A DNA stretch of 64,000 nt from Spirochaetaceae bacterium (GTDB lineage Bacteria > Spirochaetota > Spirochaetia > DSM-2461): NCBI GenBank assembly GCA_965224705.1, contig OZ245056.1, forward strand, positions 529,736-593,735. Direction: 5' to 3'. Below, one piece after another: positions 13,259 through 35,171 of this stretch. Numbering within the stretch: the first letter of the stretch is position 1; each line of letters starts with the position of its first letter. The notes beneath the pieces were generated by a model that was not told the origin of the DNA, made no database searches, and was given only the letters and a program-made list of their open reading frames with translations. The translations under genes were made by a program, and so were the position numbers.

Positions 13259-13303
13259 ACTTGCCTCTGATTTTATCGAAAAGCTGATATTTACGTAAAA
13301 TAG

Positions 13304-13332: not shown

Positions 13333-13338
13333 TGAGAA

Positions 13339-13420
13339 ACCAATTACGTGATTCTGTAATCACCCAAAAGTATTTTGATCGGCACCTCTGCCAGGCTCTG
13401 CCTGGCACGTCTGTGTTTTA
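13339..13420 (+). ncRNA. Predicted tracrRNA
   Basis: The anti-repeat ACCAATTACGTGATTCTGTAATC is imperfectly complementary to repeat positions 1-23 (GTTTCAGTAATCATGTAATTGGT). The tail CTGTAATCACCCAAAAGTATTTTGATCGGCACCTCTGCCAGG..CCTGGCACGTCTG strongly resembles the F. novicida tracrRNA/sgRNA scaffold as I remember it. It ends in the hairpin gccagg/cctggc followed by GTGTTTTA. Confidence 0.75.
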
Positions 13421-14035: not shown

Positions 14036-14282
14036 TCAAATAGCTGAAGCCGCGGCCGTTAAAATTCGTCCGGGTAATCAGGGTTTTATCCTCTTTTTTG
14101 ACCAGGTGACTGATGAAACGGCGTATTCCATTGAGTTCCGCCTGTGTCAGATATCCCCAGAACACCGATTTCTGCATGGGTTTAAGCCCATTTTTCGCCA
14201 GTTCATTGTAAACCTTCTTCCGTATCTTGTTATCTTCTATATCGTAGCAGACAAGGTATTCCTGTCTGAGAATCAATCCCAT
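13983..14282 (-). CDS. cas2: CRISPR-associated endoribonuclease Cas2
   Basis: 99 aa, with N-terminus YLVCYDIEDNKIRKKV typical of Cas2. It lies between cas1 and cas4. Confidence 0.9.
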   Translation of the reverse strand: MGLILRQEYLVCYDIEDNKIRKKVYNELAKNGLKPMQKSVFWGYLTQAELNGIRRFISHLVKKEDKTLITRTNFNGRGFSYLIGHKKKDFEDWKENCVI

Positions 14283-14286
14283 ACCA

Positions 14287-15246
14287 TCACCATTTGAACA
14301 GATAGGGCCGGTATTTTTTGTCCCCGCAGAAATGGCCGCTTAGACGGTAAACCTGCCGCTGGATAATGTGCTCCAGCTTTACCTGTTTTTTTCTGTAGGG
14401 ATATTTCTTGCTGCAGGTACGCTGTATCTCCTGAATAAGAGTCTGCTTCAGCCTGGGGGTCAAACTCCCAGCCCCTTCGCTTTGAGAACGCAGCTTTATC
14501 ACCGCCCGATCCACCACCCAGGCCCGGTATTCCTCCATAATATCCAGCACCAAAGACATTTTTCCGGGCCGGACCGCATGGAGTATGCCCAGATAGGGTT
14601 CCAGGCCGGCGTTTTCAACCGCCCCCAGAATAGTACTGCTTAAAACAGCGTACCCCAGATTGAGCATACTGTTGTTGATTTCCTGACTGCCCCGCCCCTC
14701 CCGGCAGCGAAATGACGATGAAAACAACCCGGCTTTGTTCAAGGCTTCAAAATAGCTTCGGGCACTGCTTCCCTCCAGGCCAAGAAGGGCTTCGGGAGTT
14801 GGACAATTTCCGGCTTTCAGGATGCACTCCTTCAAGCCCTCCGAGGCGTTGAGCAGTTCGGGGTTTTTGTGGTACTTGGACAGATAGTTCAACACCGCCC
14901 GCTGGTTTTTGATTTTGGCCGTTATGATAGTTCGGGCAAGGGGCAGCCTGTCACCATCGCAGTATCTGTACTGGTGAAGACGGGCGGCCGCAACGCCATG
15001 ACGGTTATTTCCAATCAGTACCGCCTGGGATGTTCCCTTAAAATCCAGGAAAAAAAGCTTAATCCCTCGGGCGCTAAAGACCTCTATCAGATCGGATGAA
15101 AAGCTTATTCCCCGGCGGGCGATGCTTAGGGTGCTCAGCCGATTGAGGGGATAGTGTTTTTCCTGCCTGTCCGCGTTCCGTACCGAGAGCAGCCCGTTTC
15201 TTACGCCGACGAAGGAGCCGTATTCACTGATCACCAGATGTTTCAT
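14287..15246 (-). CDS. cas1: CRISPR-associated endonuclease Cas1
   Basis: 319 aa with Cas1 blocks (GSFVGVRNGLLSV, EPYLGILH, SLVLDIMEEYR). It overlaps the cas9 stop by 23 nt. Confidence 0.95.
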   Translation of the reverse strand: MKHLVISEYGSFVGVRNGLLSVRNADRQEKHYPLNRLSTLSIARRGISFSSDLIEVFSARGIKLFFLDFKGTSQAVLIGNNRHGVAAARLHQYRYCDGDRLPLARTIITAKIKNQRAVLNYLSKYHKNPELLNASEGLKECILKAGNCPTPEALLGLEGSSARSYFEALNKAGLFSSSFRCREGRGSQEINNSMLNLGYAVLSSTILGAVENAGLEPYLGILHAVRPGKMSLVLDIMEEYRAWVVDRAVIKLRSQSEGAGSLTPRLKQTLIQEIQRTCSKKYPYRKKQVKLEHIIQRQVYRLSGHFCGDKKYRPYLFKW

Positions 15247-18200
15247 CGGGCATAATCCGGTTGTGAAAGAGTTCCTTCAATTGACTTCCACCAGCCCCTT
15301 TGTAGGGAGGCAGGGTTTGTCCGGCCAGATATTCTTTGGTTTCCTTTTGCCAGGCATCCTCATTTTTCTTTTTATCCCCGTCAAACCGTCTCTTACACAA
15401 GGGGTCTTCCCTGAAAAGTTTGATCAAATCAAATTCCGTGTTATCTTTGGCAAGTTCGAGTTTTATCATCGGACGGGTATTGTTGGGAATTAGAAAAAAG
15501 ATTCTCGCTATGCCCTCGGGAAGTGGTTTTTTGGCGGCATCAAGTTCATACCATTTTTCAGGGTCAATAGCTTCCCCTGCCTGAAATTTATCATCGGAAA
15601 GTTTGACAAAACTACCGGATATGCCCCAGGAAGACATTTGCGTACCCAATTTACCATCGGCAGTGAAGACGGGTATTCCAATCTTGTTATCAACAGAACG
15701 GGAGTCCGAATCGTTGACAATCTGAAAGATGGTTTTTCCCTCCCAGGTCTGCCGTCGAAGCATGTACTTACCTTCGGATGTCAAAATCGGCAGGGAAAAC
15801 ACCTTGCGGACCTTCTGATGGGGGTGTTTTTTACTATTTACGCGGAAGTAGCTTCGCAGAAAGGTGCCAAAGTCTTTATCGTCACGATGTTTTTCCCATT
15901 CTTTTTTAAGATTTATCCAGCTTTGACGCTGGGGGATGGTGATGGCTGTTCCATTGGATGGAAATTTAGTCTGGAAGTTTTTTTTATTGGCTATTGTAGC
16001 AAAGAGGTTTTTTTTCTTTTCCTTTTTTTCTTCTTGCAGAGTAAGTTTACGCTTCTCTGTGCGATAACCCAGGCCGGAATAGCAGAATTTAGCAAAGCCA
16101 TCAAAGGGGACTCCCGTTTTTGTATTGTGTTTTTCCATCCAGTACTTATGCAGCTTCAGTTTATCGATGGTCAGGGTTATACAGCCGCCGGTTTTGATTT
16201 TGGGGATATTGACCAGCCAGTCATATAGCTCACCCAGCGACTTGAATGGAGGGGGTGTTTCCGGATAGTGTACGCGCTGTTTCAAAAGGGGCAGCAGCCG
16301 GTTGAGGAAATCTATCTTGGGAGATTTCCACTGACCGGAATTTGTCCAGTCGAAACCGGCCTTGACGCTAATCTTTCCATCTTTTTCCTTTTTCATCAGA
16401 ACAGGCAGGTAATGGTCGCCGTACATGGTGTCTCTGGTGTAGGCCCTGTGTCGGGTGAACTCTTCCCTCGGCTTTCTTCGACTTAGAGCGATGACTGAAA
16501 AATCAGCAGAATCCGCACGAACCAGAGTATCGGTAAACAGGTTTTCGCGGGAGACTTCGCCGGTTTTCCTGTTGACGGGAAAAAGGCCTCTGTCTTCAGA
16601 AAAAACAAGTTGAAGACTGCCCTCCCTCTTGTGGCGGTCCGCTGTCAGCAGAAAGGCCATCTGGGCATCCAGAAGATGGGAGTAGGATTCTTGTTTCTGC
16701 TCCGGTGCCTTGGCATACTTCTCTATTTCATCGTCCATGAATTCATATAGTTTTCTAAGGTCCTTTATGCCGTCTCCCTTGGAGTTGCTCACCGCCTCCA
16801 CGCCAAAGTAGTCAAAATCAATCAGTTCTTGCCTGCCCAGGGAAAGGGCTTTTTTATAAAACGCATTGGCCAAAATCTCGGCGAAGTAGCGCTGGGTGCC
16901 GTTTACCAATGCCCGGCTTCTGTTGTCTATGGCCTGGAGTACCGCCTTCTTGAGAGGATGCTCATTGCCCAGAAACAGGGCATGGCGAAAGGCCTTTTGC
17001 TGCTCCTCCTCCAAATTGACAAAGTTCTTATATCGTCCAAACTTAAACTGCCCTCTGTCCGCATCCCAGATTGTTTCGACAATCTTTTTTTCTATCACCC
17101 CATCGTCGGCGGTGTCAAAGATTTTCTGCTTGTAATGAGTATGAAGGTTTGAAAGGGTGTAGAATCGCTCCAGCTTGTCGTTGTTTCCCTTCTTGCTGGC
17201 ATAGATGAGATTGGCCTCATCATTGAGGGTGCCGTATCTGGATGATCGGGGAATAATGTGGTCCAGTTCGCCATCGTTTCCAGCGAGGCTCCCCGTGTAG
17301 GGGCATATTCCCCCTCCCGCAGCCTGGATTCTTTTTTCCTTGTCTTCTATCGTGGGTGCTTTTCCTGCGTCTTTTTTGCTAGATTTTTTTTTGGCTTTAT
17401 CCCCCTTAATCGTTCGCAGGGATGGTTCAAATTCAAAGCGGTTGGATTCGGTGATAATGGGAACCCGAACACGGGTTCCCTGTGCCAGAGACTTTTGGAT
17501 GCGGGGCCATTGATCTTCGGCTATCTGTTTGGTCAGGATTCTGGTCATCCGCATAACGCCCCCATCTATCAAGCGGGTGGGAATGGCCGGAAGACGCTGA
17601 GCTTTGGCTCCCATGTCGTCCTGCTGCTCGATGCTCTCCATTCTATAGCTGTTATCCATGCTGCAAACCGGGCAGGTATTGGAGTTTCCCGTTCGGCCCG
17701 TAAAAACAATGTTGTATATCTGGGCAAAGGAAAAAACCGATTCAAACTTTTTTACTCTGGCTTCGGTTTCTTCCGACTTTCCAAACAGTTTTTCTCCAAT
17801 TTTTTTACTGAATTTGATTGAGTTATCGCGGAGGGCCGTTAGCTTCTTATCCTTACCCATGGCAATACGAACTCCCAGATACCCCTTGTGATCCTTTTGA
17901 GCCTCGGCGCATTTTTTGCAATGGTCTTTCATTTTGAAATCCTTGATCCACTCCAGCAGCTCATCATCGCTGCTGGATCCGATTTTATCTTTCAGGAAAT
18001 CCGGGTTCACCTGCAGAACACCGGCCAAGTCATGAAACATCTGGTAGCGTTTTTGCCGGGGTTTGTGGTTGCAGTAGATCAGCAGTTTGCCAGTGTTATC
18101 GAAGCGGGTGGTTCTTTCATAACCCCTTTTACCGTTGTGTTTGTATTCGGGATGGATAAAAATCCGCCCATCCCTGGCCCGCTGCCGCATTTTGTAATAC

Positions 18201-20053
18201 CGGCAGACAAAGTGGAGAAATTCGCCGTTGGGAAAAATATCATCGCGGTTAAAGTCAGGCTTGGTTTTCAGTAAATCCGGGAGGCGGCTTTCTTCTATGG
18301 CTTCGGCCAGTTCTTTCCGTACATCTTTAGCTGATTTTTCCTGGCGTATTTTCTTTGTGCGGCTGTAGATTTCATTGAGCTTCAGGGGGTCGGAGGCCTT
18401 GCTCCGATCCAATATAAAGTGTAGCACTCTGGCATCCAGGTCAGCCATATTTCTTTTCTGGGAGTCCGTGCGCAACTCGCCGGAAAATTCTCCGGTATAA
18501 TATGGCTTGCCCTTGCTGCTTTGCAGCTTTTCCAGTCTATCCCGGAAGTTTCCCAGATACTCCACTGCCGCCTCTTCCAAAAGGGAGAGCCACTCTTTCC
18601 ACCGGGGGTATTTTTGGTCAAGAAACCCGGAATGGAGTATCAGGCTTTGACAGCGCGGCGGGCGGCGGTTGTTGTTATCCTGATAGGGGGGAATTGTGCT
18701 GATGGGCGCTTCGGTCATCCAGAAATCGACAATCCCGCCGCTGTGCTTCGTCCAGCGTTCTTTGAGGGCCTTGTAATCCTGCGGCTTTCCGGGCTGTTTT
18801 TCCCGGTCGGTATCCGGATTAACCCTCCATTCCCGCAGCAGCCACTTGTCAAAGCAGTTTGTCAGTCTGGCTTCATCCCAGAAATCACCGCCTCGGTGTG
18901 CTTTGTTATCGAAATACTTCCTCAGCGGCTTTAGTTCCAAATTGCTTATGTGGCCAATCAAGTTGGTCAGTTTTTCCGGGCTTGTTCCCGAGTACTTTCC
19001 CCCTTGCAGGCTGCTGCAAAACCGCTTGAGATACCCATGGGTATGATCCTTGCGGCTAAGAACTTCCAGCACCTCATCAAAGTACTTTTTGCGGTGCCGT
19101 CCGCCCGATACCAGCTCACCATGAACCTTATAGAGTGCGTAGGTCAGGTGGTGGATGTGCGACTTGTCGTACTCCTTTTCGTCGGGGTCGCTCAGATTGA
19201 GTTTGTCCATATCGCACGAAGATTCATCGAAATCCCACATTGAATCCTTGCGGGACTTTGTTTTGGCCGTGTAGTCCGGCACTGTGTCCCGTATCCGCTG
19301 TATCCGGTCCTGGTTTTCGGCTGCGTACTCGGTCATATTCATTGATTTGGCATCATTCGGTACTCCCTCCAGTCCCTGAACACCGGATTCAATCCACCTG
19401 TCGATAATCCAGCGGGAAAGCTGCTGCAGAGTTTTGCCTTTTTTATTCAGATCAACTCCGGAGGCATTATCCAATACCAGTTGGCAATACTCTTTAAGGA
19501 GCTTTGTTCTGCCGTAATACTGCAAGTCATCTTTACCCTCTTTGGCCTTTTTGACCTCTTTGCATAGTGCTTCCAGGGCTTCGCCGCATTTTTCCTGGTT
19601 GCCCGCAAGTTCTTGCAATACCCGGTCCAAATCTATGCGTCCCCCTTCTTCGGCATCCACCATGTTCTTGAAGTCACTGGGGAGTTTCGACCACACTTCC
19701 GCAGGAAAGCAGGAGAGCACGGACTTGTCGTATTCCTCGGTAAGAACACTGAATCCCCGGCGGTTCAGCAGAAATCCGATGCTTTGGGAAACATCCGCAT
19801 TCCAGGGAAGGCAAAGGTGCTTCTCCCAGATAAGCCGGAAGAGCCGTTTGGCCATTTGCCGCCGGTCCATTCCCCGGCGCTGATGCCGTGTGGCGGTACG
19901 GCCCACCATAAGCAGGGTGTAAGCATTTTTTTCCAGATTGTACACGGTTCCTGATCTTTCAATATTCCTGGCATCACTTCCGGCGGGGTAGTGCGCACTG
20001 TACACGCCGGTATGGGCGGCACCTAAGTCAATGGCTATGGGATTTATATTCAT
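15224..20053 (-). CDS. cas9: Type II-B Cas9 (1609 aa), FnCas9-like
   Basis: RuvC-I PIAIDLGAAHTGV, RuvC-II PIITESNRFEFEP, HNH ELDHIIPRS..NDEANLIYASKKGNNDK and RuvC-III SYSHLLDAQMAF. Many long blocks are colinear with F. novicida Cas9 as recalled (NLELKPLRKYF, TIPPYQDNNNRRPPRCQSLIL, YCNHKPRQKRYQ, AQRLPAIPTRL, VNGTQRYFAEILAN, IVNDSDSR). Confidence 0.97.
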   Translation of the reverse strand: MNINPIAIDLGAAHTGVYSAHYPAGSDARNIERSGTVYNLEKNAYTLLMVGRTATRHQRRGMDRRQMAKRLFRLIWEKHLCLPWNADVSQSIGFLLNRRGFSVLTEEYDKSVLSCFPAEVWSKLPSDFKNMVDAEEGGRIDLDRVLQELAGNQEKCGEALEALCKEVKKAKEGKDDLQYYGRTKLLKEYCQLVLDNASGVDLNKKGKTLQQLSRWIIDRWIESGVQGLEGVPNDAKSMNMTEYAAENQDRIQRIRDTVPDYTAKTKSRKDSMWDFDESSCDMDKLNLSDPDEKEYDKSHIHHLTYALYKVHGELVSGGRHRKKYFDEVLEVLSRKDHTHGYLKRFCSSLQGGKYSGTSPEKLTNLIGHISNLELKPLRKYFDNKAHRGGDFWDEARLTNCFDKWLLREWRVNPDTDREKQPGKPQDYKALKERWTKHSGGIVDFWMTEAPISTIPPYQDNNNRRPPRCQSLILHSGFLDQKYPRWKEWLSLLEEAAVEYLGNFRDRLEKLQSSKGKPYYTGEFSGELRTDSQKRNMADLDARVLHFILDRSKASDPLKLNEIYSRTKKIRQEKSAKDVRKELAEAIEESRLPDLLKTKPDFNRDDIFPNGEFLHFVCRYYKMRQRARDGRIFIHPEYKHNGKRGYERTTRFDNTGKLLIYCNHKPRQKRYQMFHDLAGVLQVNPDFLKDKIGSSSDDELLEWIKDFKMKDHCKKCAEAQKDHKGYLGVRIAMGKDKKLTALRDNSIKFSKKIGEKLFGKSEETEARVKKFESVFSFAQIYNIVFTGRTGNSNTCPVCSMDNSYRMESIEQQDDMGAKAQRLPAIPTRLIDGGVMRMTRILTKQIAEDQWPRIQKSLAQGTRVRVPIITESNRFEFEPSLRTIKGDKAKKKSSKKDAGKAPTIEDKEKRIQAAGGGICPYTGSLAGNDGELDHIIPRSSRYGTLNDEANLIYASKKGNNDKLERFYTLSNLHTHYKQKIFDTADDGVIEKKIVETIWDADRGQFKFGRYKNFVNLEEEQQKAFRHALFLGNEHPLKKAVLQAIDNRSRALVNGTQRYFAEILANAFYKKALSLGRQELIDFDYFGVEAVSNSKGDGIKDLRKLYEFMDDEIEKYAKAPEQKQESYSHLLDAQMAFLLTADRHKREGSLQLVFSEDRGLFPVNRKTGEVSRENLFTDTLVRADSADFSVIALSRRKPREEFTRHRAYTRDTMYGDHYLPVLMKKEKDGKISVKAGFDWTNSGQWKSPKIDFLNRLLPLLKQRVHYPETPPPFKSLGELYDWLVNIPKIKTGGCITLTIDKLKLHKYWMEKHNTKTGVPFDGFAKFCYSGLGYRTEKRKLTLQEEKKEKKKNLFATIANKKNFQTKFPSNGTAITIPQRQSWINLKKEWEKHRDDKDFGTFLRSYFRVNSKKHPHQKVRKVFSLPILTSEGKYMLRRQTWEGKTIFQIVNDSDSRSVDNKIGIPVFTADGKLGTQMSSWGISGSFVKLSDDKFQAGEAIDPEKWYELDAAKKPLPEGIARIFFLIPNNTRPMIKLELAKDNTEFDLIKLFREDPLCKRRFDGDKKKNEDAWQKETKEYLAGQTLPPYKGAGGSQLKELFHNRIMPDETSGDQ

Positions 20054-20201: not shown

Positions 20202-20781
20202 GTGGCTAGGATTACCATTCAGACTAAAGTCAGAGCACCTGTTGAAAAAGGTGTGGGACTTTTACACCGAGCCGAAGCATGTCAAGCACTGGGAGCCTGT
20301 CGAACTTACGTCTCACGGCTCGATTTTTGCCCTTTTTTCCCGCTACCGCGTTGCCAAAATGCTCACGTAGCCCAGCTACGCTCCGCTTTTGCCGCCTTGT
20401 ATCGGAAAAAAATCATCAAAAATCGCCTCGAAGCCTTAAAGTCCGACAGACTCCTGGAACAATGCAAGCGAAGACTGGCACACGCCGCAGGCCGAAAACG
20501 AGCTTGGACCCGGCGGAACATTTTCATACCGGATGGAAGCAAAGGACGAGAGCAGGGGCTTTGATTATACCGGGACCTTTGAAGATGTCGTCGCCTGCAA
20601 GTCGCTCAAATCAAGCCTCGCAGACGGGCGAAAGGTGGAGGCTTCTTTCTCCGGCGTTGGAGCCGAAACAACAGTCGTCGTCAGATTTGATCCCGACAAA
20701 CAGGTATCGGAAGACATGCAAAAAGCTGGCTGGCAGGCGATCCTGGACAACTTCAAAAAATATACGGAACAAGGAGTCTGA
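20202..20781 (+). pseudogene. SRPBCC/AHSA1-family gene disrupted by a MITE and an apparent 1-nt frameshift
   Basis: The N-terminus RITIQTKVRAPVEK continues in the +1 frame as VWDFYTEPKHVKHW (extra G near 20250). After the MITE it resumes as NNASEDWHTPQAENELGPGGTFSYRMEAKDESRGFDYTGTFEDV... Confidence 0.7.
20293..20453 (+). mobile_element. MITE, internally deleted variant (161 bp) with 4-bp TSD CTGG
   Basis: GAGCCTGTCGAACTT...AAGTCCGACAGACTC, flanked by CTGG (20289-20292 and 20454-20457). Removing it restores the codons K-H-W-N-N of the host gene. Confidence 0.7.
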
Positions 20782-20784: not shown

Positions 20785-21210
20785 ATGAAGGTTAATCCCT
20801 ATCTCAATTTCCCCGGCAGCGCCGAAGAGGCTTTTACTTTTTATAAGTCCATCTTTGGGGGCGAGCCATCTGTGTTAAAGTTTAAGGATATGCCGCCCAT
20901 GGAAGGTGTTGAGATATCGAAGGAAGATGCGGAAAAAGTCATGCATATTTCCCTGCCATTGGGCAAGGACATTCTGCTGATGGCCTCCGACGTCCTGGAA
21001 TCGCTGGGACAGAGCTACAAAGAGGGCAATAATATCTCTGTTTCTTTGCACCCGGATTCAAAGGAAGAGGCCGACCGAATCTTTCAGAAGCTCTCTGAAG
21101 GAGCCGAGATTGAGATGCCTATAGAGGACCAGTTCTGGGGCGATTACTTCGGCTCCCTGAAGGACAAATTCGGTGTTCAATGGATGGTCAATTATAACGC
21201 CGAGTTTTAG
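20785..21210 (+). CDS. VOC (glyoxalase/PhnB-like) family protein
   Basis: 141 aa. MKVNPYLNFPGSAEEAFTFYKSIFGGE and the C-terminal FWGDYFGSLKDKFGVQWMVNY are typical of the PhnB/YjdN-like family. Confidence 0.8.
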   Translation: MKVNPYLNFPGSAEEAFTFYKSIFGGEPSVLKFKDMPPMEGVEISKEDAEKVMHISLPLGKDILLMASDVLESLGQSYKEGNNISVSLHPDSKEEADRIFQKLSEGAEIEMPIEDQFWGDYFGSLKDKFGVQWMVNYNAEF

Positions 21211-21391
21211 GGAACAAAAAGAATAAACTTGTAGATATTCTGTTATTGCGTCAGTAATAGCCGGAGCTGCTGAAAGCATACCTTTTTTATATACCATCTC
21301 TTCGCCCGCCATTCGGAGGTCTGGACATTTTCCTTACCATTCAGAGAATTGCGGAACGGGTAGATAGTCTTACCCTGATGATGCTTCCTTT

Positions 21392-24300
21392 TTAACTGAA
21401 CCCGTTATTTCCAGTTCCCCCCGTCAGGCAATGCCGTGACGGTACAAACTGGAACCCTTTAACGGCATCCAGGGAAGCGGCACCGTCTTTATGCCGCAGC
21501 CACACCCGCTGCCAGGCCAGTTCGGTACCCCGTAACCGGGTGTAACGGCCGTTTTCATCTATTTCCAGCGACCACCACTGCCCGTCAGGATTTGTGCTCA
21601 TAATACAGGAGGGAAGGGACCGGTCCAGGGCCCAGATAATCTGCGTACCATCATCGGAGCCGGAGGCCAGGAGGCGGCCATCAGGGCTGAATGCCACACT
21701 CCCAACCCAGTCGGCATACCCTTCCAGGACGCCTTCGCATTCACCTCTCGCACTCCACAGTCTCACCGTTCCGTCAGCGGAGCCGGAAGCCAGTCGACGG
21801 CCATCAGGGCTGAATGCCACACTCCAAACCCAACTGGCATGCCCTTCCAGGACGGCTTCGCAATCTCCTTCCGCGCTCCACAGTCTCAGCGTTTTGTCAG
21901 AGGAGCCCGAGGCCAGGCGGCGGCCATCAGGGCTGAATGCCACACTCAAAACACTAGAGGCATGCCCTTCCAGGACGGCCAGGCAATCTCCTTCCGCGCT
22001 CCACAGTCTCAGCGTTTTGTCAGAGGAGCCGGAGGCCAGGCGGCGGCCATCGGGGCTGAATGCCACACTAAAAACCAAAACAGAATGTCCTTCCAGGACG
22101 GCTTCGCATTCTCCTTCTACGCTCCATAGTCTCAGCGTACCGTCAAAGGAGCCGGAGACCAGGCGGCGACCATCAGGGCTGAATGCCACACTATTGACTT
22201 TATTGGAATGTCCTTCCAGGACGGCTTTGCATTCACCTTCTGCGCTCCACAGTCTCAGTGTACAGTCATTGGAACCGGAGGCCAGGAGGCGGCCATCGGG
22301 ACTGAATCCCACACTCAAAACCCTGGCGGAATGCCCTTCCAGGACGGTTTTGCATTCGCCTTCTGAGTTCCACAGTCTCACCGTTCCATCATCGGAGCCG
22401 GAAGCCAGGCGTCCATCGGGGCTGAATCCCACACTCCAAACACTAGCGGAAGTCCCTTCCAGGACGGCTTTGCATTCTCCTTCCACGCTCCACAGTCTCA
22501 CCGTTCCATCATCGGAGCCGGAGGCCAGACGGCGGCCATCGGGGCTGAATCCCACACTAGAGACTCCACCTCTATGCCCTTCCAGGACACCTTCGCATTC
22601 TCCTTCCGCGCTCCACAGTCTCACCGAAGCGTCATCGGAGCCGGAGACCATGAGGCGTCCATCGGGGCTGAATCCCACACTAGAGACTCCACCTCTATGC
22701 CCTTCCAGGACACCTTCGCATTCTCCTTCCGCGCTCCACAGTCTCACCGTTCCGTCAGAGGTACCGGAGGCCAGGAGGCGGCCATCGGGGCTGAATGCCA
22801 CACTCATAACCCAGTCGGAATGCCCTTCCAGGACGGCTTCGCATTCTCCTTCCGCGCTCCACAGTCTCACCGTTCCGTCAGAGGAGCCGGAGGCTAGGCG
22901 GTGGCCATCAGGGCTGAATCCCACACTCCATACCCAATTGGAATGCCCTTCCAGGACGACTTCGCATTCGCCTTCCGCACTCCACAGTCGCAGCGTACCG
23001 TCAAAGGAGCCGGAGGCCAGGCGGCGGCCATCGGGGCTGAATGCCACATTACAAACCCTATCGGAATGCCCTTTCAGGACGGCTTCGCATTCTCCTTGCG
23101 CGCTCCACAGTCTCAGCGTTTTGTCATCGGAGCCGGAGGCCAGGCGGTGTCCATCTGGGCTGAATGCCACACTTCTAACCCTATCGGAATGCCCTTTCAG
23201 GACGGCTTCGCATTCTCCTTGCGCGCTCCACAGTCTCAGCGTTTTGTCATCGGAGCCGGAGGCCAGGCGGCGGCCATCGGGGCTGAATGCTATACTATAA
23301 ATTCTACCTCTATGGCCCCATGTTATATGATTCTTCGCGTAGGGCAGGGGCGAGACAGGTGCCATAGGGCGACCCGGATATATCCGGCTTCCCCTTTTTG
23401 CAAAAAGTCCGGGAATCGGCCCCTTCGCATTGACACAGGTCAGCCTTTGAGCATCCTGCTTCCCTTCTGTTCTCGTAACCCGGCATTCTTCCCATACCGA
23501 TTGATTGATGTTCGTTTCGTTCAACTCCAGCTCATCAATGCGGCATTCCTGCCAGCGGCAGAGAAGCATTTGACAGCGGGTTAGTACCAGTTTCCGGGCA
23601 CCGATGCCCCGAAGCTTTTCGCCGGACATATCGGCACCGAAGACATGAACCTTTTCAAATGCTTCAAAAGGCTGGCCCTCCTCCGCCGCGGATCGGATAA
23701 TTCGGAGCAGCAGGGCATCCTGATGCGGTGAATGGGCACTCTTTTCCGGCCGGGCGGCATAGGCCGCAAGCTGTGCATGCAGTTTTTTCCGCTCGCCGTC
23801 CTTCAGTAGAACAAGGGCCTCTCCAATGAACTTTTCCGTCAGGCGGGAAACGGGTTTGGCCAGGGAATAACCATCCTGTATCCACTGTGAGAGCAGTTTC
23901 CGGGCCAGGAAATACTCCTGCATGGAGCTGTGGGTAAAACCGAATTCATCCTCGCCGAATCGGAGCAGCAGGGTGGAATTGCGCAGATCCTTTTCGAGCT
24001 GTTCGCTGCCCTCCGTCTCATACTGGGCAAACATATTCCTGTCTCTGCGCAGCCATGTCTGGTACCAGTCGTTCAAATTGTCTATGTTCATGCGCTGTTC
24101 ACTGTTCTTCCAAAAATACAGGGCCATATCCTGGAGCAAACGGTGCTTATGGCGGGGCTTAAGAACATGTTTACGATCGCGATCCATTACATCAGCGATA
24201 AGGGCTTCATAGAACACGGCGGCATTGACGGGAATACCCTCCGACTGTATGGACTGGATGGACGGAAGCAAATCGGGCAGTTTACTCAGCAGGAGGGGAC

Positions 24301-26143
24301 GGCGTCCCAGGGCGGCCAGGTATTCCTCGCCGTCTATGTAATTCCACACCCGTAATGCCCCCTCCTTCCCCAGTTTCTTCTCCAGGAGCTGCCGCATCTT
24401 TCCATCCGAAAGGAGCAGTATTTCCATGGCCCGGTAGTCCCCCTGTTCAGCATCGGAGCGATAAAGGCCTCGCAGGAAACCGGCCTGCTTGTAAATCGTT
24501 TCAAAGTGATGACTCCGGCAGGAAATTACCGTCTTTACCTTTGACTCATCCCGCGTTTTCTCGGACGGAAACACCTTCATCAGTTCGCCTAGAAAACGGT
24601 CCTGCCTGTCGTCGGTATAGTAGACTAGCTTTTCATCCAGGCCGTCAAATATGGGAAGAACCCGTCCCTGTCTGACATCTTCAATAACCTTTTTCGGCAC
24701 GGCCCGAACCTCATGCTTTCGCAGCACCATTGCAATCATTTCGTTTAGAAGGGGAAGGCGTTTCGTGACTATGCCGTCTTTTATCTCTTCAACAAAGGTC
24801 TGTACCTCGCGTAAATCCATGTACAGGGGAATCGGCAGGGAAGAATCGTTTTTGCGTGCTTCCACCAGATGCTGGGCAAAAATACGGCAATTGAAGGTTT
24901 TGCCCATGCCGTAGTCGCCCAGTATTGTGTAAACGGGTTCCTTGCCATCTTTTGCCCAGCTCAGCATGTCGGGAACCAGTTCCCTGGATGGCCTTGACTG
25001 CCTTTCCTCATTGCCATCCTCTCTGTGGCGTCGTTTTTGTTCTGCCAGAAAGACTTTTTCCGTTGGGCTTAACATCAAAGTGCGTTGTGCCTCGGAACTT
25101 ACAAATTTTTCGGGAGAGTAATCTGGGTTGTTCTTATCTTTGCATTTTTCTAATTCTTTGTTCCGGGTTTTTTCACGCTCTTCTCTCTGTACCATGACTT
25201 CCTGAATATTCTTAATCAAACCATCGACAAATCGTTCCTGGAAATTGTCGGATTCGCATTTTCCCCAAAAAGCATCGGGATCAAGTCCCTGCTGATAGTA
25301 CGTGTGGATCGTCACTATTTTTCTGGTATTTTTTTTCCAGCCGGGAATCTTTCCTTTGAACCCCCTTTTCATAAGAGCAAAAAATTCTGAAGGTGTTTTT
25401 ACGCGACCATCCCACTTGGAATCCAGTCCGGCCACAAGGAGCTTGTCGTTCTGAAGCAGATAAGGGAATTCCTCTTCTGCAATGAATCGGCTGTCGAGGA
25501 AGGCCTGGGATAGGCAGGCCAGGCCAAAATCGGCTTCAGCCATCTTCTCCCTAATCTGTACCGCAAAATCCCGGCCCGGCAGCAGATGAGGCATTCGCCA
25601 AATACGGATGGGCCTTTTGGTACCCTTGCTTCGCTCCTCCAGTATCCGAGTAAGATCCCTGACTAATCTGTTGTCCTCATAGGCATAGCTGAGAAACAAT
25701 TTCAAGTCATTCTTGCCCAGGGGTTTGTCGTCCACATTCGAAACGTCATTGAAAACGAATTGTTCGCTGTTATACTGCCGGTTGGCATCCAGTAAGTTGC
25801 CAATCGGTTCGGAAGGGGCCTCAATGCTTATGCATCCGGGATTGGAAGCGGTTTTCTGATGGGTGATTATCTTTAGGGATTCCAGCACATCCTTCAAACC
25901 TCTGTCTTCCTGATTACCGGCGGCCGTTTTAATGGCTTCTCTAACCCGCCTGAGAAAGTTCCGGAAACTGCCGCCGGGGTTCTTCGCGTTGGCATAGATT
26001 TCCTGCACAGCCCGTTCGGTTTCCACCTTTCCGTCTTCAAGCAGGCGGACCAGCTTGTTCAGATTTTTAGAATCGGTCTTTCCCAACTCGTTAAGGCTAA
26101 GGAATTCGTCTATCACTTTTTCTATGGAAGTCATAAAAACCAT
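21392..26143 (-). CDS. TIR-NACHT-WD40 STAND NTPase (bacterial NLR-like, putative defence sensor/effector)
   Basis: TIR-like block KLFLSYAYEDNRLVRDL...ACLSQAFLDSRFIAEEEF. NACHT Walker A ILGDYGMGKTF and Walker B LPIFDGLDE. Fourteen C-terminal WD40 units (GHSxxVxSVAFSPDGxxLASGSxDxTxRLW). Confidence 0.85.
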   Translation of the reverse strand: MVFMTSIEKVIDEFLSLNELGKTDSKNLNKLVRLLEDGKVETERAVQEIYANAKNPGGSFRNFLRRVREAIKTAAGNQEDRGLKDVLESLKIITHQKTASNPGCISIEAPSEPIGNLLDANRQYNSEQFVFNDVSNVDDKPLGKNDLKLFLSYAYEDNRLVRDLTRILEERSKGTKRPIRIWRMPHLLPGRDFAVQIREKMAEADFGLACLSQAFLDSRFIAEEEFPYLLQNDKLLVAGLDSKWDGRVKTPSEFFALMKRGFKGKIPGWKKNTRKIVTIHTYYQQGLDPDAFWGKCESDNFQERFVDGLIKNIQEVMVQREEREKTRNKELEKCKDKNNPDYSPEKFVSSEAQRTLMLSPTEKVFLAEQKRRHREDGNEERQSRPSRELVPDMLSWAKDGKEPVYTILGDYGMGKTFNCRIFAQHLVEARKNDSSLPIPLYMDLREVQTFVEEIKDGIVTKRLPLLNEMIAMVLRKHEVRAVPKKVIEDVRQGRVLPIFDGLDEKLVYYTDDRQDRFLGELMKVFPSEKTRDESKVKTVISCRSHHFETIYKQAGFLRGLYRSDAEQGDYRAMEILLLSDGKMRQLLEKKLGKEGALRVWNYIDGEEYLAALGRRPLLLSKLPDLLPSIQSIQSEGIPVNAAVFYEALIADVMDRDRKHVLKPRHKHRLLQDMALYFWKNSEQRMNIDNLNDWYQTWLRRDRNMFAQYETEGSEQLEKDLRNSTLLLRFGEDEFGFTHSSMQEYFLARKLLSQWIQDGYSLAKPVSRLTEKFIGEALVLLKDGERKKLHAQLAAYAARPEKSAHSPHQDALLLRIIRSAAEEGQPFEAFEKVHVFGADMSGEKLRGIGARKLVLTRCQMLLCRWQECRIDELELNETNINQSVWEECRVTRTEGKQDAQRLTCVNAKGPIPGLFAKRGSRIYPGRPMAPVSPLPYAKNHITWGHRGRIYSIAFSPDGRRLASGSDDKTLRLWSAQGECEAVLKGHSDRVRSVAFSPDGHRLASGSDDKTLRLWSAQGECEAVLKGHSDRVCNVAFSPDGRRLASGSFDGTLRLWSAEGECEVVLEGHSNWVWSVGFSPDGHRLASGSSDGTVRLWSAEGECEAVLEGHSDWVMSVAFSPDGRLLASGTSDGTVRLWSAEGECEGVLEGHRGGVSSVGFSPDGRLMVSGSDDASVRLWSAEGECEGVLEGHRGGVSSVGFSPDGRRLASGSDDGTVRLWSVEGECKAVLEGTSASVWSVGFSPDGRLASGSDDGTVRLWNSEGECKTVLEGHSARVLSVGFSPDGRLLASGSNDCTLRLWSAEGECKAVLEGHSNKVNSVAFSPDGRRLVSGSFDGTLRLWSVEGECEAVLEGHSVLVFSVAFSPDGRRLASGSSDKTLRLWSAEGDCLAVLEGHASSVLSVAFSPDGRRLASGSSDKTLRLWSAEGDCEAVLEGHASWVWSVAFSPDGRRLASGSADGTVRLWSARGECEGVLEGYADWVGSVAFSPDGRLLASGSDDGTQIIWALDRSLPSCIMSTNPDGQWWSLEIDENGRYTRLRGTELAWQRVWLRHKDGAASLDAVKGFQFVPSRHCLTGGTGNNGFS
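21630..23325 (-). repeat. 14 tandem 123-bp WD40-coding units with very high DNA identity
   Basis: Adjacent units are nearly identical at the DNA level, for example 23041-23163 vs 23164-23286, and 22561-22680 vs 22681-22800. One unit is 120 bp. Confidence 0.85.
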
Positions 26144-27038: not shown

Positions 27039-30000
27039 ATGAAAATCCTGGACAATATAAATAACCTTTGGGGAAATGACCTGAAGGAGACTCTTAAGCC
27101 AGGTGCAAAACTGAAAATTGCAGCCTCATGCTTTTCTATCTATGCATTTGAAGCCCTTAAAAAAGAGCTCGAAAAAATTGATTCGCTTGAGTTTATCTTT
27201 ACGGCTCCGACGTTTGTTCCTAATGAAGTGACCGACAAGGTATCCAAAGAGCGTCGGGAATTTCATATTCCGAAGCAGCAGCGTGAGCGAAATCTCTATG
27301 GCAGCGAGTTTGAAATACAGCTTAAAAACAAACTGACGCAACGTGCCATTGCCAAAGAATGCGCTGGCTGGATTAGACGCAAAGCCTGCTTTCGATCAAA
27401 TTCCATAAAAGCACCGATGCAGCAATTTGCATGTTTAAATAAAGGCGATGCTGCTGCTGTATATATGCCGCTTCATGGCTTTACAGCAGTCGATCTTGGC
27501 TACCAGCAAGGTAATGCCGTCTCGAATTTTATAAGCAAATTTGACGATGCTCCTTCAACGCAGACATGGCTGAATCTTTTTAATCAGATATGGAAAGATT
27601 CTTCAAAACTAAAAGATGTGACAGATGCCATTTGCACACATATCGAATCCGTTTATCAGGAGAATCCTCCCGAAAAAATCTATTTTCTAATGCTCTATAA
27701 CATCTTCAACGAGTTCCTTGAGGACCTGAATGAAGATCTCCTTCCAAATGATTTGACTGGATACAAAAACAGTGTTGTCTGGAATAAGCTGTTTAACTTC
27801 CAAAAGGATGCAGTAACCGGGATTATAAATAAGCTTGAGAACTTTAACGGATGCATTCTTGCAGACAGTGTCGGGCTCGGTAAAACCTTTACTGCACTTG
27901 CAGTGATTAAATACTACGAACTACGCAATCGCTCAGTACTGGTTTTATCCCCGAAAAAACTTGCTGACAACTGGTTGAACTATAACCAAAACCTAAAAAC
28001 AAATATTCTGGTTAAAGACCGTTTGAATTATGAGGTTCTTTGCCACACGGATTTACAGCGCACAAGTGGGGAATCTTTTGGAACACCGCTGGACAGAATT
28101 AACTGGGGCAATTATGATCTCGTGGTCATTGATGAGTCACACAATTTCAGAAACAACGATGCTTACAAGGATAAGGAAACCCGATACCAAAAACTGATGA
28201 ATTCTGTCATTAGAGATGGGGTTAAAACAAAAGTCTTAATGCTTTCTGCAACACCGGTCAATAACAGATTCAATGACCTTAGAAACCAATTGGCATTGAC
28301 ATACGAGGGCGAGTCAGAAAAACTGAGTAGTAAATTAAGGACCGGAAAAAAAGTTGAAGAAATTTTCCGGCACGCACAGACTGTATTTAATTCATGGGCA
28401 AAGCTGCCAGCAGATAAACGCACAGCCAGAGCAATACTGGATGCTCTTGATTTTGATTTTTTTGAGCTGCTTGATAGCGTAACCATTGCCCGGTCCAGAA
28501 AACACATAGAAACTTTCTATGATACTGCGTATATCGGCAAGTTTCCTGTAAGACGCAAACCCATATCTTTCCGCTGCCCACTGACTTCCCGTAAGGACGT
28601 CATGAGTTTTAATGAAATTTATGAACATCTAATGGAAATAAAGCAATCTGTTTATATTCCTATGTTATATGTTTTTGAAAGTAGAAAATCAAAATATGAA
28701 AACCTTAACGAAGGTAAAAAATATGATAGTCAGTTTTTGCAAGCTCAAGCAAACGGTATAAAAAAACTCATGGCTACTAATCTACTCAAAAGATTAGAAA
28801 GCTCAGTAAATTCTTTCCGTATAACACTTAATACAATGAAAGAAAAAATTAAAGAAAAACTATCTGAAATTGATGAACTCAATAAGATTCAATTATCTTC
28901 TGTGATTAGTGACGATTGGGAAGATGAAGACACGGATGGTGTTTTGGAAACACAAGCAAATTCTAAAATCGAAATAGACCTTGCTGACATTGATTTAGAA
29001 TCATGGAAAAGAGACTTAGAAGAAGACCAGACTCTGGTTGAATTACTCCATGAGGAAATGGAAAAAATATCTCCTGAAGATGACACCAAGCTCCAACACC
29101 TTAAATCTCACATTAAAAACAAAATCAAACAACCCATAAACTCTGGAAATAAAAAGATCATTATCTTTACGGCTTTCGCAGATACTGCGAGCTACCTTTA
29201 CGACAACCTCTGTGATGAACTATTAAAAATTGGAATACACGCTGGAAAAATTACCGGAAAAGATATTCCTAAAACCACACTGAGCCAATTGAACAAAAAA
29301 CGGGGATATGGCTTTCAGTCTATCCTCACCCTTTTCTCCCCGATATCGAAAGAAAAAGCACTGACTCTTCCTGAAGAGCACAGTGAAATTGACTTACTTA
29401 TAGGTACGGACTGTATTTCTGAAGGGCAGAATCTACAGGATTGCGATTATCTAATCAACTACGACATTCACTGGAACCCTGTCCGTATTATTCAACGATT
29501 TGGGCGTATCGACCGTATCGGCTCCCCAAACGAATCCATCCAACTGGTTAACTACTGGCCTGATATTTCTCTGGATGAATACATCAATCTGAAAGAGCGG
29601 GTGGAGAACAGGATGGTCATTGACGATGTTACGGCCACCGGAGACGACAATGTACTTTCGGGCCAGTCCAATGATGTCAGCTATCGAAAAGAACAGCTCC
29701 GCCGTCTTCAGGATGAAGTGATCGATCTTGAAGACCTGAAAACTGGTGTAAACATAACTGACCTCGGACTCAATGACTTCCGCATGGACCTAATCAACTA
29801 TATCAAGAGCAACAGTGACTTAGATCATTTACCTAATGGACTCCACGCTATCGTCGCAGCCAATGAGAATATAGGGTTACAACCGGGAGTGATATTTACA
29901 CTCCGGAATAGAAATTCGGGCGTCAACATCAATCAGCATAACCGGCTGCATCCGTATTATCTCATCTACATCAACGACGATGGTCAGGTCATTACTGACC

Positions 30001-30293
30001 ACACACAGGTCAAACAACTTTTGGACTTGGTACGAACAAGCTGCAAGGGGAAGGAAGTGCCTTTTACTGATTTATGCTCTACCTTTAATCGTGAGACCAA
30101 CGACGGAAGAAATATGCTGAAATATTCAGAACTTCTCGGCCAGGCAATCCGAACGATGATTGAGATCAAAGAAGACAAGGATATCGACAGTCTGTTTTTA
30201 GGAACGAATACAACGGCATTGGTAGACACTATTCATGGACTGGATGATTTTGAACTGATTTCCTTCTTGGTCGTCAAGGAGGATACAACATGA
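27039..30293 (+). CDS. SNF2-family helicase with an extra ~250-aa N-terminal domain (PLD-like fold suspected, no HKD motif)
   Basis: Motif I LADSVGLGKTF, II VVIDESHNFRN, III MLSATPVNN, V/VI LIGTDCISEGQNLQ...WNPVRIIQRFGRIDRIGS. The N-terminus LKIAASCFSIYAFEALKKELEKIDSLEFIFTAPTF is typical of the helicase-related proteins found next to DUF4391. Confidence 0.85.
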   Translation: MKILDNINNLWGNDLKETLKPGAKLKIAASCFSIYAFEALKKELEKIDSLEFIFTAPTFVPNEVTDKVSKERREFHIPKQQRERNLYGSEFEIQLKNKLTQRAIAKECAGWIRRKACFRSNSIKAPMQQFACLNKGDAAAVYMPLHGFTAVDLGYQQGNAVSNFISKFDDAPSTQTWLNLFNQIWKDSSKLKDVTDAICTHIESVYQENPPEKIYFLMLYNIFNEFLEDLNEDLLPNDLTGYKNSVVWNKLFNFQKDAVTGIINKLENFNGCILADSVGLGKTFTALAVIKYYELRNRSVLVLSPKKLADNWLNYNQNLKTNILVKDRLNYEVLCHTDLQRTSGESFGTPLDRINWGNYDLVVIDESHNFRNNDAYKDKETRYQKLMNSVIRDGVKTKVLMLSATPVNNRFNDLRNQLALTYEGESEKLSSKLRTGKKVEEIFRHAQTVFNSWAKLPADKRTARAILDALDFDFFELLDSVTIARSRKHIETFYDTAYIGKFPVRRKPISFRCPLTSRKDVMSFNEIYEHLMEIKQSVYIPMLYVFESRKSKYENLNEGKKYDSQFLQAQANGIKKLMATNLLKRLESSVNSFRITLNTMKEKIKEKLSEIDELNKIQLSSVISDDWEDEDTDGVLETQANSKIEIDLADIDLESWKRDLEEDQTLVELLHEEMEKISPEDDTKLQHLKSHIKNKIKQPINSGNKKIIIFTAFADTASYLYDNLCDELLKIGIHAGKITGKDIPKTTLSQLNKKRGYGFQSILTLFSPISKEKALTLPEEHSEIDLLIGTDCISEGQNLQDCDYLINYDIHWNPVRIIQRFGRIDRIGSPNESIQLVNYWPDISLDEYINLKERVENRMVIDDVTATGDDNVLSGQSNDVSYRKEQLRRLQDEVIDLEDLKTGVNITDLGLNDFRMDLINYIKSNSDLDHLPNGLHAIVAANENIGLQPGVIFTLRNRNSGVNINQHNRLHPYYLIYINDDGQVITDHTQVKQLLDLVRTSCKGKEVPFTDLCSTFNRETNDGRNMLKYSELLGQAIRTMIEIKEDKDIDSLFLGTNTTALVDTIHGLDDFELISFLVVKEDTT

Positions 30294-30952
30294 GTTCGCT
30301 ATACAACTTCCCAAAGGCAGCTGCATTGGGAAGGATGCTTGCCAAAAGTAAAATCTACGATCACGCCGCGCCGAGCAGCAAGGTAAAGGAGCTGTTCGTC
30401 AAGGAGGTTGAAAAGATCATCTGGTCACACAAACTCTCTCCGACAACGATTAACCTTCCAGCCAGTGATGGCGTCCAGGAGATTCAGGTTTTCTCCATAC
30501 TATTAAGGACCGGGGAACTGTCGCAGGAAGTTCTGCACACAATAGACAAGGCAATACCTTCTCCCATTCTGTTTGAATTGAAATATGGCGGTAAAACCAA
30601 ATATGCCGCCAGTTACAAACGGCCCAGCGAGGTTGACAAAAAAAAGCGGGTGGTCAGCAGTTATTTCCTCTCCGACTGGATGAAGGAAGATGGTCCGGCA
30701 TCCGAACTTCCGGTGCTGCTCAATATGGGCGCTCTTTATCAGTCGTTTTTGACAAGTCTCAGTCCTCTTTCTTTCCGGCAAGGGGAGAAGCTGGGCGACT
30801 TGGCCGCAAGAGTTGACCTGCTGCGTATCAAAGAACGCGAAGCTGAAAAGGTGGAGAGCCGGATAAAGAGGGAGAAGCAGTTTAATCGACGAGTGGAACT
30901 GAACCGCACATTGAATGTGTTGAAGGCTGAGATAGAAGAAATGAGAAGATGA
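30290..30952 (+). CDS. DUF4391-like protein
   Basis: 220 aa. The start overlaps the SNF2 stop (ATGA). The N-terminal FPKAAALGRMLAKSKIYDH pattern, the size and the position next to an SNF2 gene match my recollection of DUF4391. This was not verified by search. Confidence 0.6.
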   Translation: MSSLYNFPKAAALGRMLAKSKIYDHAAPSSKVKELFVKEVEKIIWSHKLSPTTINLPASDGVQEIQVFSILLRTGELSQEVLHTIDKAIPSPILFELKYGGKTKYAASYKRPSEVDKKKRVVSSYFLSDWMKEDGPASELPVLLNMGALYQSFLTSLSPLSFRQGEKLGDLAARVDLLRIKEREAEKVESRIKREKQFNRRVELNRTLNVLKAEIEEMRR

Positions 30953-31204
30953 ACCGCGAAAAGCGCGAAATACGCGAAAAGGTTTTGTTTTTTGATGAAT
31001 GCTGTGTTATTCAGGGGGATGTTTTTTTTGTATAAAGAGATGGGGTGTGGCTTCCTGATAGAAGGATTGAGAAGATGAACCGCGAAAAGCGCGAAATACG
31101 CGAAAAGGTTTTGTTTTTTGATGAATGCTGTGTTATTCAGGGGGATGTCTTTGATGTGTATAAAGAGAGATGGGGTGTGGCTTCCTGATAGAAGGAATGA
31201 GAAG
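30949..31204 (+). repeat. Two decayed tandem copies (126 and 130 bp) of the 5' end of the GxxExxY gene
   Basis: ATGAACCGCGAAAAGCGCGAAA... recurs at 30949, 31075 and 31205. Copies 1 and 2 encode MNREKREIREKVLFFDECCVIQGD... and terminate after 28 and 37 codons. Confidence 0.85.
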
Positions 31205-31639
31205 ATGAACCGCGAAAAGCGCGAAACACACGGAAAGGTTTTGTTTCCTGAGGAATCCTATGCCATTCAGGGAGCTATCTTTGATGTGTATAAAGAGATG
31301 GGTTGTGGCTTCCTGGAGGCTGTCTATCAAGAATGTCTGGATAAGGAGTTGTCTAAACGAGACATTCCGTTTCAACCGCAAGTAGAGCTTCAGCTTAATT
31401 ATAAAGGTGAAAAGCTGAATCAGACCTATAAACCGGATTTTATCTGCTACGACAAAATCGTTGTTGAGATAAAAGCAGTAAAAGAACTGACATCTGAACA
31501 TAAGGCGCAACTCTTAAACTACCTCAAAGCCACCGGGCTTGAATTAGGACTGCTCGTCAACTTTGGCAGCCACCCAAAAATTGAAATTATACGAATTGCT
31601 AATACAAACTTTCGCGATTTTCGCGCATTTCGCGGTTAA
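31205..31639 (+). CDS. GxxExxY protein (PD-(D/E)XK-superfamily small protein common in R-M loci)
   Basis: MNREKRETHGKVLFPEESYAIQGAIFDVYKEMGCGFLEAVYQECL contains the signature GFLEAVY. I start at 31205 rather than the tracked 31118, which runs through a decayed repeat copy. Confidence 0.8.
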   Translation: MNREKRETHGKVLFPEESYAIQGAIFDVYKEMGCGFLEAVYQECLDKELSKRDIPFQPQVELQLNYKGEKLNQTYKPDFICYDKIVVEIKAVKELTSEHKAQLLNYLKATGLELGLLVNFGSHPKIEIIRIANTNFRDFRAFRG

Positions 31640-31651
31640 GGAGACACAAAA

Positions 31652-33688: not shown

Positions 33689-33702
33689 GGAAAGCTTTTA
33701 AA

Positions 33703-35163: not shown

Positions 35164-35171
35164 TACTTTTA

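Follow-up and report, generated by a model that had tools for sequence, protein, structure and literature searches.

Concerted evolution and clustered diversity in the 14-unit WD40 array of a bacterial TIR-NACHT-type protein

Introduction

Hu et al. (2017) defined highly repetitive WD40 proteins as those in which at least six of eight contiguous repeats have all pairwise identities at or above 0.7, and found that hotspot sites remain diverse in the prokaryotic members. The published range of synonymous divergence (dS) between the blades of such proteins is below 0.4. WRAP propellers are carried by cyanobacterial STAND ATPases and are coupled to TIR proteins, and they have been proposed to act in innate immunity and to turn over rapidly (Dunin-Horkawicz, Kopec and Lupas 2014). 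HET-D/E of the fungus Podospora show concerted evolution, with four selected codons arranged as two pairs that flank conserved residues (Paoletti et al. 2007). WD40 propeller sensors have also been reported on some clades of bacterial defence STANDs. Here, we analyzed a 64,000-nucleotide stretch of contig OZ245056.1 from a Spirochaetaceae bacterium (hereafter the window), which carries a TIR-NACHT-WD40 gene on the minus strand at 21392 to 26143. A first-pass annotation of the window had described the WD40 array as evolving in concert, with variation confined to a few positions per blade. We found that the blades do evolve in concert, with exchange between repeats spreading scaffold changes and erasing positional orthology, and that the variation is clustered, not confined.

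In both the sequence search (E = 3.9e-184) and the fold search (E = 2.8e-60), the top Protein Data Bank (PDB) match to the array was 2YMU, the "highly repetitive propeller" of Nostoc punctiforme Npun_R6612. It has 14 blades of 41 residues, as the window array does, and forms two seven-bladed propellers. However, the window array is only 49% identical to it, and blade identity exceeds 0.9 in Npun_R6612 but is 0.74 here, in the lowest class of "highly repetitive." Under the definition of Hu et al., the window array is highly repetitive at an identity of 0.70 (units 2, 3, 4, 5, 7, and 9) and not at 0.75, and its dS of 0.28 lies inside the published range. We place it among the highly repetitive (WRAP-type) propellers. 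As in WRAP proteins, the array lies on the C-terminal side of a STAND ATPase and is associated with TIR, its blade identity is high, and its diversity lies at interaction hotspots. The TIR domain and WD40 array are joined in one polypeptide in the window protein, whereas they are encoded by two coupled genes in Nostoc, and the window-protein family adds an NNH6-like N terminus and a conserved C-terminal tail.

The HET-D/HET-E/NWD family of Podospora anserina likewise combines NACHT with WD40 arrays of near-identical repeats, and its units group by genome. With the columns of the 41-residue unit counted from the H of GH, the HET-D/E codon pairs on the interaction face match columns 4 and 6 (x-V-x) and columns 22 and 24 (x-D-x) of the window array. 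The parallel to fungal NLR/HET repeats drawn in the first-pass annotation is borne out by these paired selected codons, which flank a conserved residue in both systems. The window protein differs from the fungal NLRs in being bacterial, in having TIR instead of HET as the effector, and in having no repeat-induced point mutation. It is also encoded at a single locus in the window, so that exchange between paralogues is not seen. The unit number is apparently fixed at 14 in three orthologues, but it is highly variable in Podospora.

The bNACHT, Avs, and Apaf-1-like WD40 STANDs also place an effector, a STAND NTPase, and a repeat sensor in one protein encoded in a defence island; the window protein matches none of their PADLOC models. 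In Apaf-1, the trigger is bound by two tandem WD40 propellers that follow a STAND NTPase, and these propellers gave strong sequence and fold matches to the array. Apaf-1 differs in its NB-ARC NTPase, its CARD effector, its diverged blades (7 + 8), and its lack of internal repeat homogeneity. The pattern as such has been described before in highly repetitive WD40 proteins of prokaryotes, and the gain from this locus is incremental. The first-pass annotation mentioned neither this precedent nor the identity of the product as a bacterial TIR-NACHT protein. With this locus, the well-known fungal mode of receptor diversification, which combines homogenisation with selection on four codons of the propeller face, is extended to an NLR-like family of bacteria, and the extension was tested explicitly by orthologue comparison, predefined sites, and contig-level variation.

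Results and Discussion

Fourteen in-frame WD40 units

Tandem Repeats Finder detected one array at 21643 to 23290, with a period of 123, 13.4 copies, and 85% matches. Read in frame, the array consists of 14 units of 41 residues on the minus strand (amino acids [aa] 944 to 1516; 21596 to 23314), and 14 stretches were matched by the Pfam WD40 profile PF00400 (E = 1.5e-184). The span of 21630 to 23325 annotated earlier had the right location with slightly displaced limits. The conserved 14-mer of the unit, TTCAGCCCNGATGG, occurs 14 times, always in the array and always on the minus strand, where 0.13 occurrences are expected by chance. As annotated, 13 units are 123 bp long and one is 120 bp. The short one is unit 8 (22334 to 22453), in which a codon is missing in the A-B loop and GT replaces GH.

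Unit 1 (23192 to 23314) has a divergent start (HRGRIYSI...). It is followed on the minus strand by unit 2 (23069 to 23191), unit 3 (22946 to 23068), unit 4 (22823 to 22945), unit 5 (22700 to 22822), unit 6 (22577 to 22699), and unit 7 (22454 to 22576), and, beyond unit 8, by unit 9 (22211 to 22333), unit 10 (22088 to 22210), unit 11 (21965 to 22087), unit 12 (21842 to 21964), and unit 13 (21719 to 21841). Unit 14 (21596 to 21718) is unit-like in its first half and degenerate in its second half (QIIWALDRSLPSC). A 568-aa open reading frame (ORF) on the plus strand at 21594 to 23300 was rejected as a gene; it is the shadow of the repeat, whose WD40 units are read on the minus strand. The G+C content is 59.6% in the array, 54% in the gene, and 46% in the window, and the high value in the array may reflect amino acid composition or biased conversion.

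DNA identity averages 82% over all pairs of units 1 to 13 (range, 75 to 89%), and the protein mean is 74%. Unit 14 resembles the others at only about 60%, because its second half is degenerate. Neighboring units had been described as almost identical. This is true of the pair then cited, 23041 to 23163 and 23164 to 23286, which differ at 6 of 123 positions, but the mean for adjacent units is 83%, and near-identity is limited to two tracts in units 1 to 3 and units 5 to 7, both out of register with the blade boundaries. In the first tract (23054 to 23270, minus strand), 94 nucleotides (nt) are exactly identical between 23054 to 23147 and 23177 to 23270, from column 15 to column 5 of the next unit. 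In the second tract (22536 to 22749, minus strand), 91 nt are exactly identical between 22536 to 22626 and 22659 to 22749, from column 25 to column 14 of the next unit. We regard both as recent exchange tracts. By our estimate, the longest exact run expected at 82% identity is about 16 nt, compared with the 94 nt of the first tract.

Units group by array and not by position

Only six relatives had enough exact words in common with the N-terminal part to be detected in a word-indexed search, and an exact-sequence look-up gave no record for either the window protein or P0002. The orthologues P0001 and P0002 are 80% and 66% identical to the window protein over the N terminus, and both are full length with exactly 14 units. 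Scaffold identity within arrays is 0.84 in the window, 0.95 in P0001, and 0.96 in P0002, compared with 0.79 to 0.82 between arrays. Units of different arrays are as alike at the same position (0.82) as at other positions (0.82), and the nearest neighbor lay in the same array for 38 of 39 units. Private residues have spread across each array: E36 and L39 in the window, L36 and M39 in P0001, and A20, V26, I28, and R37 in P0002. The concerted evolution proposed in the first-pass annotation is thus upheld by two 14-unit orthologues whose units group by array, although homogenisation in the window copy is weaker than had been implied. A scan of metagenome contigs gave one useful distant locus, L003 (38% identical; DNA 40% GC), whose array is likewise homogeneous in itself (89% DNA identity) and varies in the same columns. 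Two scans of genome contigs yielded no orthologue DNA and only one relative, at 27% identity.

The edges of the arrays behave differently from their interiors. The degenerate last half-unit and the C-terminal tail are common to the window gene, P0001, and P0002, and the last unit of P0002 retains the ancestral ASGS, whereas its units 1 to 13 have ASAS. Reduced exchange at the array edges would yield such a pattern, and the degenerate half of unit 14, kept in both orthologues, appears to have escaped homogenisation.

Alternatively, each array may have been freshly re-amplified from one blade, as in the WRAP model, and then altered by point mutation with no continuing conversion. We consider this rather improbable. 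It would also make units cluster by array, and the literature on highly repetitive WD40 proteins takes low dS between blades as a sign of recent duplication; in P0001, dS is 0.09 overall and just 0.08 in the scaffold. However, fresh amplification does not sit well with three orthologues that share exactly 14 units, the degenerate last half-unit, and the C-terminal tail, and the ASGS of P0002 looks like a spread that was halted at the edge. In addition, each identical tract spans one unit, the two are in different registers, and only some neighbors are involved, and the variable codons of P0001 are several bases apart even though its dS is about 0.1. We favor continuing exchange between blades, which would proceed by unequal crossing-over or gene conversion.

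Variation and non-synonymous change concentrate at hotspot columns

Entropy is highest at column 6 (3.2 bits), followed by columns 3, 4, 22, 37, and 24. Columns 2, 3, 4, 6, 22, and 24, which are 6 of the 41, carry 50% of the amino acid entropy. The six most variable columns hold 28 of the 51 extra residue types (multinomial P = 4e-5), and 62 of the 123 nucleotide positions vary. The earlier claim that substitutions cluster in three places agrees with the peaks at columns 3, 4, 6, 22, and 24, but half of the entropy lies elsewhere. Likewise, the scaffold described as invariant is nearly so, with exceptions in unit 8 (T for H), unit 1 (I for V), unit 6 (MV for LA), and the second half of unit 14.

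Wu et al. (2012) placed the hotspots of the WD40 top face at R1-2 and R1 in the motif (V/L/I)-R1-R2-(V/L/I) and at D-1, the residue before the tetrad Asp. The sequences V5-x6-S7-V8 and x22-D23 in the array put R1-2, R1, and D-1 at columns 4, 6, and 22. These three columns have accumulated at least 17 non-synonymous steps and 1 synonymous step, compared with 34 and 31 in the remaining columns (Fisher P = 8e-4). For the ratio of non-synonymous to synonymous divergence (dN/dS), we used variable columns that were predefined from P0001 and P0002 and not from the window (columns 2, 3, 4, 6, 9, 22, and 24). By the Nei-Gojobori method, which counts changes and involves no site model, dN/dS was 2.57 in these columns and 0.30 in the scaffold of the window array, and 3.36 and 0.26, respectively, in the P0001 array. 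Column entropies were correlated among four independent arrays (rho, 0.49 to 0.57), and the same variable columns were seen again in about 20 more arrays of the family. The top-face positions (D-A loop, R1-2, R1, D-1, and D+1) keep or gain diversity, with an excess of non-synonymous change. The rapid diversification suggested in the first-pass annotation is in line with these ratios and with the contig units described below.

The variable columns map to the predicted top face

We modeled aa 925 to 1583 with AlphaFold2, and the mean predicted local distance difference test (pLDDT) score was 79.5. Most blades scored above 90, with a dip at unit 8 and low values in unit 14 and the C-terminal tail. 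Each unit has four modeled strands, A to D, at columns 5 to 10, 16 to 21, 25 to 30, and 35 to 40, and the array (21596 to 23314, minus strand) is predicted from the repeat, the Pfam matches, the model, and the fold search to form two tandem seven-bladed propellers like those of 2YMU. The residues of the D-H-S/T-W tetrad (H1, S19, D23, and W29) are invariant except for T in unit 8 and Y in unit 14. The bottom loops SPDG and AEGE are invariant or nearly so.

In the model, columns 2 to 4 lie in the D-A loop, column 6 lies at the start of strand A, and the B-C turn holds columns 22 and 24. By WD40 convention, columns in these elements belong to the top face, and therefore the variable columns are predicted to lie there. 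This matches the ligand-side placement made in the first-pass annotation, and columns 4, 6, and 22 coincide with the hotspots of Wu et al. Unit 8 is the first blade of the second propeller; its tetrad His is replaced by Thr, and model confidence falls there.

Read data and the number of units

Sequence of the array gene was found in mollusc metagenomes, and metatranscriptome contigs showed low-level RNA across the TIR-NACHT-WD40 gene. The run data consist of short de Bruijn contigs, which break up throughout the array, as would be expected from the earlier warning that the repeat number is easy to misassemble. Some contig ends from related samples show units that are absent from the window (GHSRGVNS, GHSASVRS, and HSARVWS). 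Outside the variable columns these match window units, their flanks are identical, and they are either strain variants or paralogues. In run X2, a 423-nt contig fuses unit 14 (21565 to 21678) to linker-like sequence found just upstream of the array (about 23358 to 23387); the join reflects either a variant with a single unit or an assembly path that collapsed.

An error in the number or order of the units, through collapse, expansion, or strain mixing, is unlikely. It could be argued from the breakage of the short-read contigs, from window 22100 to 22339, which had no match at 99% identity in the contigs, from the contig that links unit 14 straight to sequence like that just upstream of the array, and from relatives on short contigs with 11, 7, or 1 units, such as P0005 (999 aa; one unit plus the tail). 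Three orthologues have 14 units. The frame is open across all 14 units into the conserved tail, and about two thirds of the array was matched at 99% identity or more by independent contigs at strain-level depth. Moreover, 14 units make two propellers of seven; 2YMU has the same number, and so do two orthologues that were assembled independently, one of them on a 3.0-Mb contig. The intact frame and the agreement with the orthologues and 2YMU give the count of 14 indirect backing. The repeat region of the gene should not be trusted in short-read assemblies.

Domain architecture of the protein

The 1,583-aa protein is encoded by a single ORF, and its order of domains (NNH6-like, TIR, NACHT-type NTPase, 14 WD40 units, C-terminal tail) was defined by Pfam and by alignment with P0001. 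All of its features are on the minus strand. The N-terminal helical domain (aa 18 to 74; 25922 to 26092) is NNH6-like, with a borderline PF22737 score of 26.8 bits at a cutoff of 27. The TIR domain (aa 150 to 231; 25451 to 25696) scored 32.5 bits with PF13676 (TIR_2; cutoff, 28). It includes a conserved Glu225 that, by its motif, we take to be the equivalent of the catalytic TIR glutamate. The STAND NTPase module with a helical arm (aa ~385 to 890; 23474 to 24991) was delimited by its motifs and as the part common to 2,004 representative proteins. It has a Walker A motif, GDYGMGKT (409 to 416), and a Walker B motif, IFDGLDE (498 to 504), which fit the patterns GxxxxGK[ST] and hhhhD[GA]hDE, respectively. 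A Walker B motif of the form D[GA]hDE is a mark of NACHT. In a Pfam scan of the window protein, the NPHP3_N profile scored 18.9 bits, under its cutoff of 24.8, and a PDB sequence search with the N-terminal part gave no meaningful match.

The conserved C-terminal tail (aa 1517 to 1583), together with the stop codon, occupies 21392 to 21595 and had no Pfam match in the profile scan. Its approximately 65 residues are kept in P0001, P0002, P0005, and L003, with ELAWQRVW in the window protein and an AWRWLGW-type motif in many relatives. The last ten codons are unlike between orthologues.

The gene sits in a defence island

On one flank of the gene is a complete-looking type II-B CRISPR-Cas locus (12589 to 20053). 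It comprises a cas9 gene of the Csx12 type (1,609 aa; 15224 to 20053), cas1 (14287 to 15246), cas4 (13418 to 14035), and a CRISPR array with a period of about 74 bp (12589 to 13219). On the other flank, the cluster at 27039 to 38584 encodes an SNF2/ResIII helicase (1,084 aa), a DUF4391 protein, an N6/N4 DNA methylase, a Schlafen AlbA_2/HATPase_c_4 protein, and a ResIII protein with a C-terminal restriction endonuclease domain. Metabolic genes of an ordinary kind lie beyond this cluster. The CRISPR-Cas locus, a tRNA gene, and the operon-like gene order show a bacterial setting. The TIR-NACHT-WD40 gene sits in a defence island, and its presence marks such an island beside a type II-B Cas9.

Homology to the P0001 locus (L001) is confined to window 26260 to 21424, and the flanks are unrelated. 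In other samples, DNA contigs likewise break off there (21420 to 21424), and they diverge also at 21209 to 21213. The gene therefore lies in different neighborhoods in different strains. The gene for P0001 is accompanied by a NotI-like endonuclease gene, a C5 methylase gene, a DDE transposase gene, and a reverse transcriptase gene (L001 16454 to 18253 and 20391 to 21191). Pieces of the L001 flank match window 54710 to 55552 (a DUF2807 gene) and 1387 to 1723.

The array as a putative ligand-sensing end

Taken together with the domain architecture, the array is probably the ligand-sensing end of a bacterial NLR-like protein composed of TIR, a NACHT-type STAND NTPase, and WD40. Several results weigh against this reading or parts of it. 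The NACHT profile PF05729 scored 18.2 bits in the Pfam scan of the window protein, under its cutoff of 26.7, and the AlphaFold2 model of the N-terminal 939 aa had a pLDDT of only 39. A PADLOC scan matched no NLR or Avs model and gave only a repeat-region match and two weak TIR matches. The top-face mapping is topological, being drawn from strand positions and published hotspot rules and not from three-dimensional coordinates. The other half of the amino acid variation falls outside the hot columns, and the dN/dS ratios were summed from pairs that are not independent of one another, within an array that recombines. As for the repeat number, 94% of the N-terminal words occur in the closest sample, compared with only 45 to 48% of the words of the array. 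Finally, the scaffold dS of 0.27 in the window array is about the same as the divergence from P0001 (N-terminal dS, 0.27; between-array dS, 0.24). Therefore, homogenisation in the window copy was mostly old or weak, with the exception of the two recent tracts.

The protein might instead be a signaling or host-interaction scaffold of a mollusc-associated bacterium and not a phage sensor. The runs that hold the sequence are mollusc metagenomes, predicted roles of prokaryotic WD40 proteins are varied, and no PADLOC defence model matches. We nevertheless think a non-immune role doubtful, given that TIR, a STAND NTPase, and a repeat sensor occur together and that the catalytic-type Glu is conserved, given the defence genes on both flanks, and given the orthologue, which lies in an unrelated neighborhood beside a restriction-methylase pair.

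If the array is a sensor, its variable top face may bind a foreign protein, most likely one derived from phage. Ligand binding would release NTP-dependent oligomerization of the NACHT module. The oligomer would bring the TIR domains together, and NAD+ would be consumed or converted via Glu225, stopping the infection. Specificity would be renewed by blade shuffling and by selection on the hotspot residues. It is possible, and we put this forward only tentatively, that the gene is one of an allele series in a mollusc-associated bacterial population, in which shuffling of blades and substitution at hotspots would deal out new propeller faces, as at the fungal het-d and het-e loci. The alternative units in contigs from the same samples are a first hint of such a series. 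If it exists, bacteria would have a population-level, fast-turnover repertoire of intracellular sensors for which no retroelement is needed.

We also considered purifying selection on the fold combined with unconstrained loops, with neither exchange nor positive selection. A scaffold dN/dS of 0.30 fits this explanation, and the literature explains some highly repetitive WD40 proteins with high dS in this way. It is nonetheless very unlikely, because synonymous sites are alike as well (dS 0.27), exact tracts of 91 to 94 nt are present, positional orthology between orthologues is absent, and dN exceeds dS at the predefined sites; furthermore, ordinary WD40 blades are far less identical to each other. 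Targeted hypermutation, in which a diversity-generating retroelement (DGR) or something similar writes the variable codons, is scarcely credible: such retroelements do diversify related bacterial conflict proteins, and a reverse transcriptase gene lies about 5.5 kb downstream at the P0001 locus, but the window has no reverse transcriptase-like ORF, a window search found no template copy of a unit outside the array, and the variable bases show no adenine bias (G 24, C 20, A 12, and T 6), and on these grounds we dismissed it.

The wider family

An exhaustive HMMER search with the N-terminal 939 aa against 1.84 billion representative proteins found 2,004 relatives at E <= 1e-3, 524 of them at E <= 1e-30. 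We examined a sample of 154 proteins, consisting of 152 fetched sequences, the window protein, and L003. The D[GA]hDE form of Walker B was present in 149 of the 154. TIR was present in 113, and the glutamate equivalent to Glu225 was kept in 96% of these TIR segments. Many family proteins are 1,550 to 1,620 aa long and have a related terminal tail. Mean blade identity in the family arrays ranges from 0.38 to 0.95, and the more homogeneous of these arrays again vary most at a set of columns that includes 4, 6, and 22; the automatic unit counts miss divergent and edge units and serve for trends only. A family this large, with blades from near-identical to diverged, could be used to study the origin of new binding specificities in the immune sensors of bacteria.

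Other features of the window

Just upstream of the cas9 start, at 20234 to 20467, metatranscriptome word depth reached 50 to 880, compared with 2 to 7 over the NLR gene, and many loose contig ends at 20292 to 20457 lead into differing flanks. This suggests a multicopy element or an abundant small RNA, possibly related to CRISPR. Far from the main island, an ORF at 52682 to 54271 encodes an Eco57I-type/N6 DNA methylase. A second tandem repeat, at 30931 to 31315, lies between the DUF4391 gene and the next ORF and consists of three copies of 130 bp with 90% matches.

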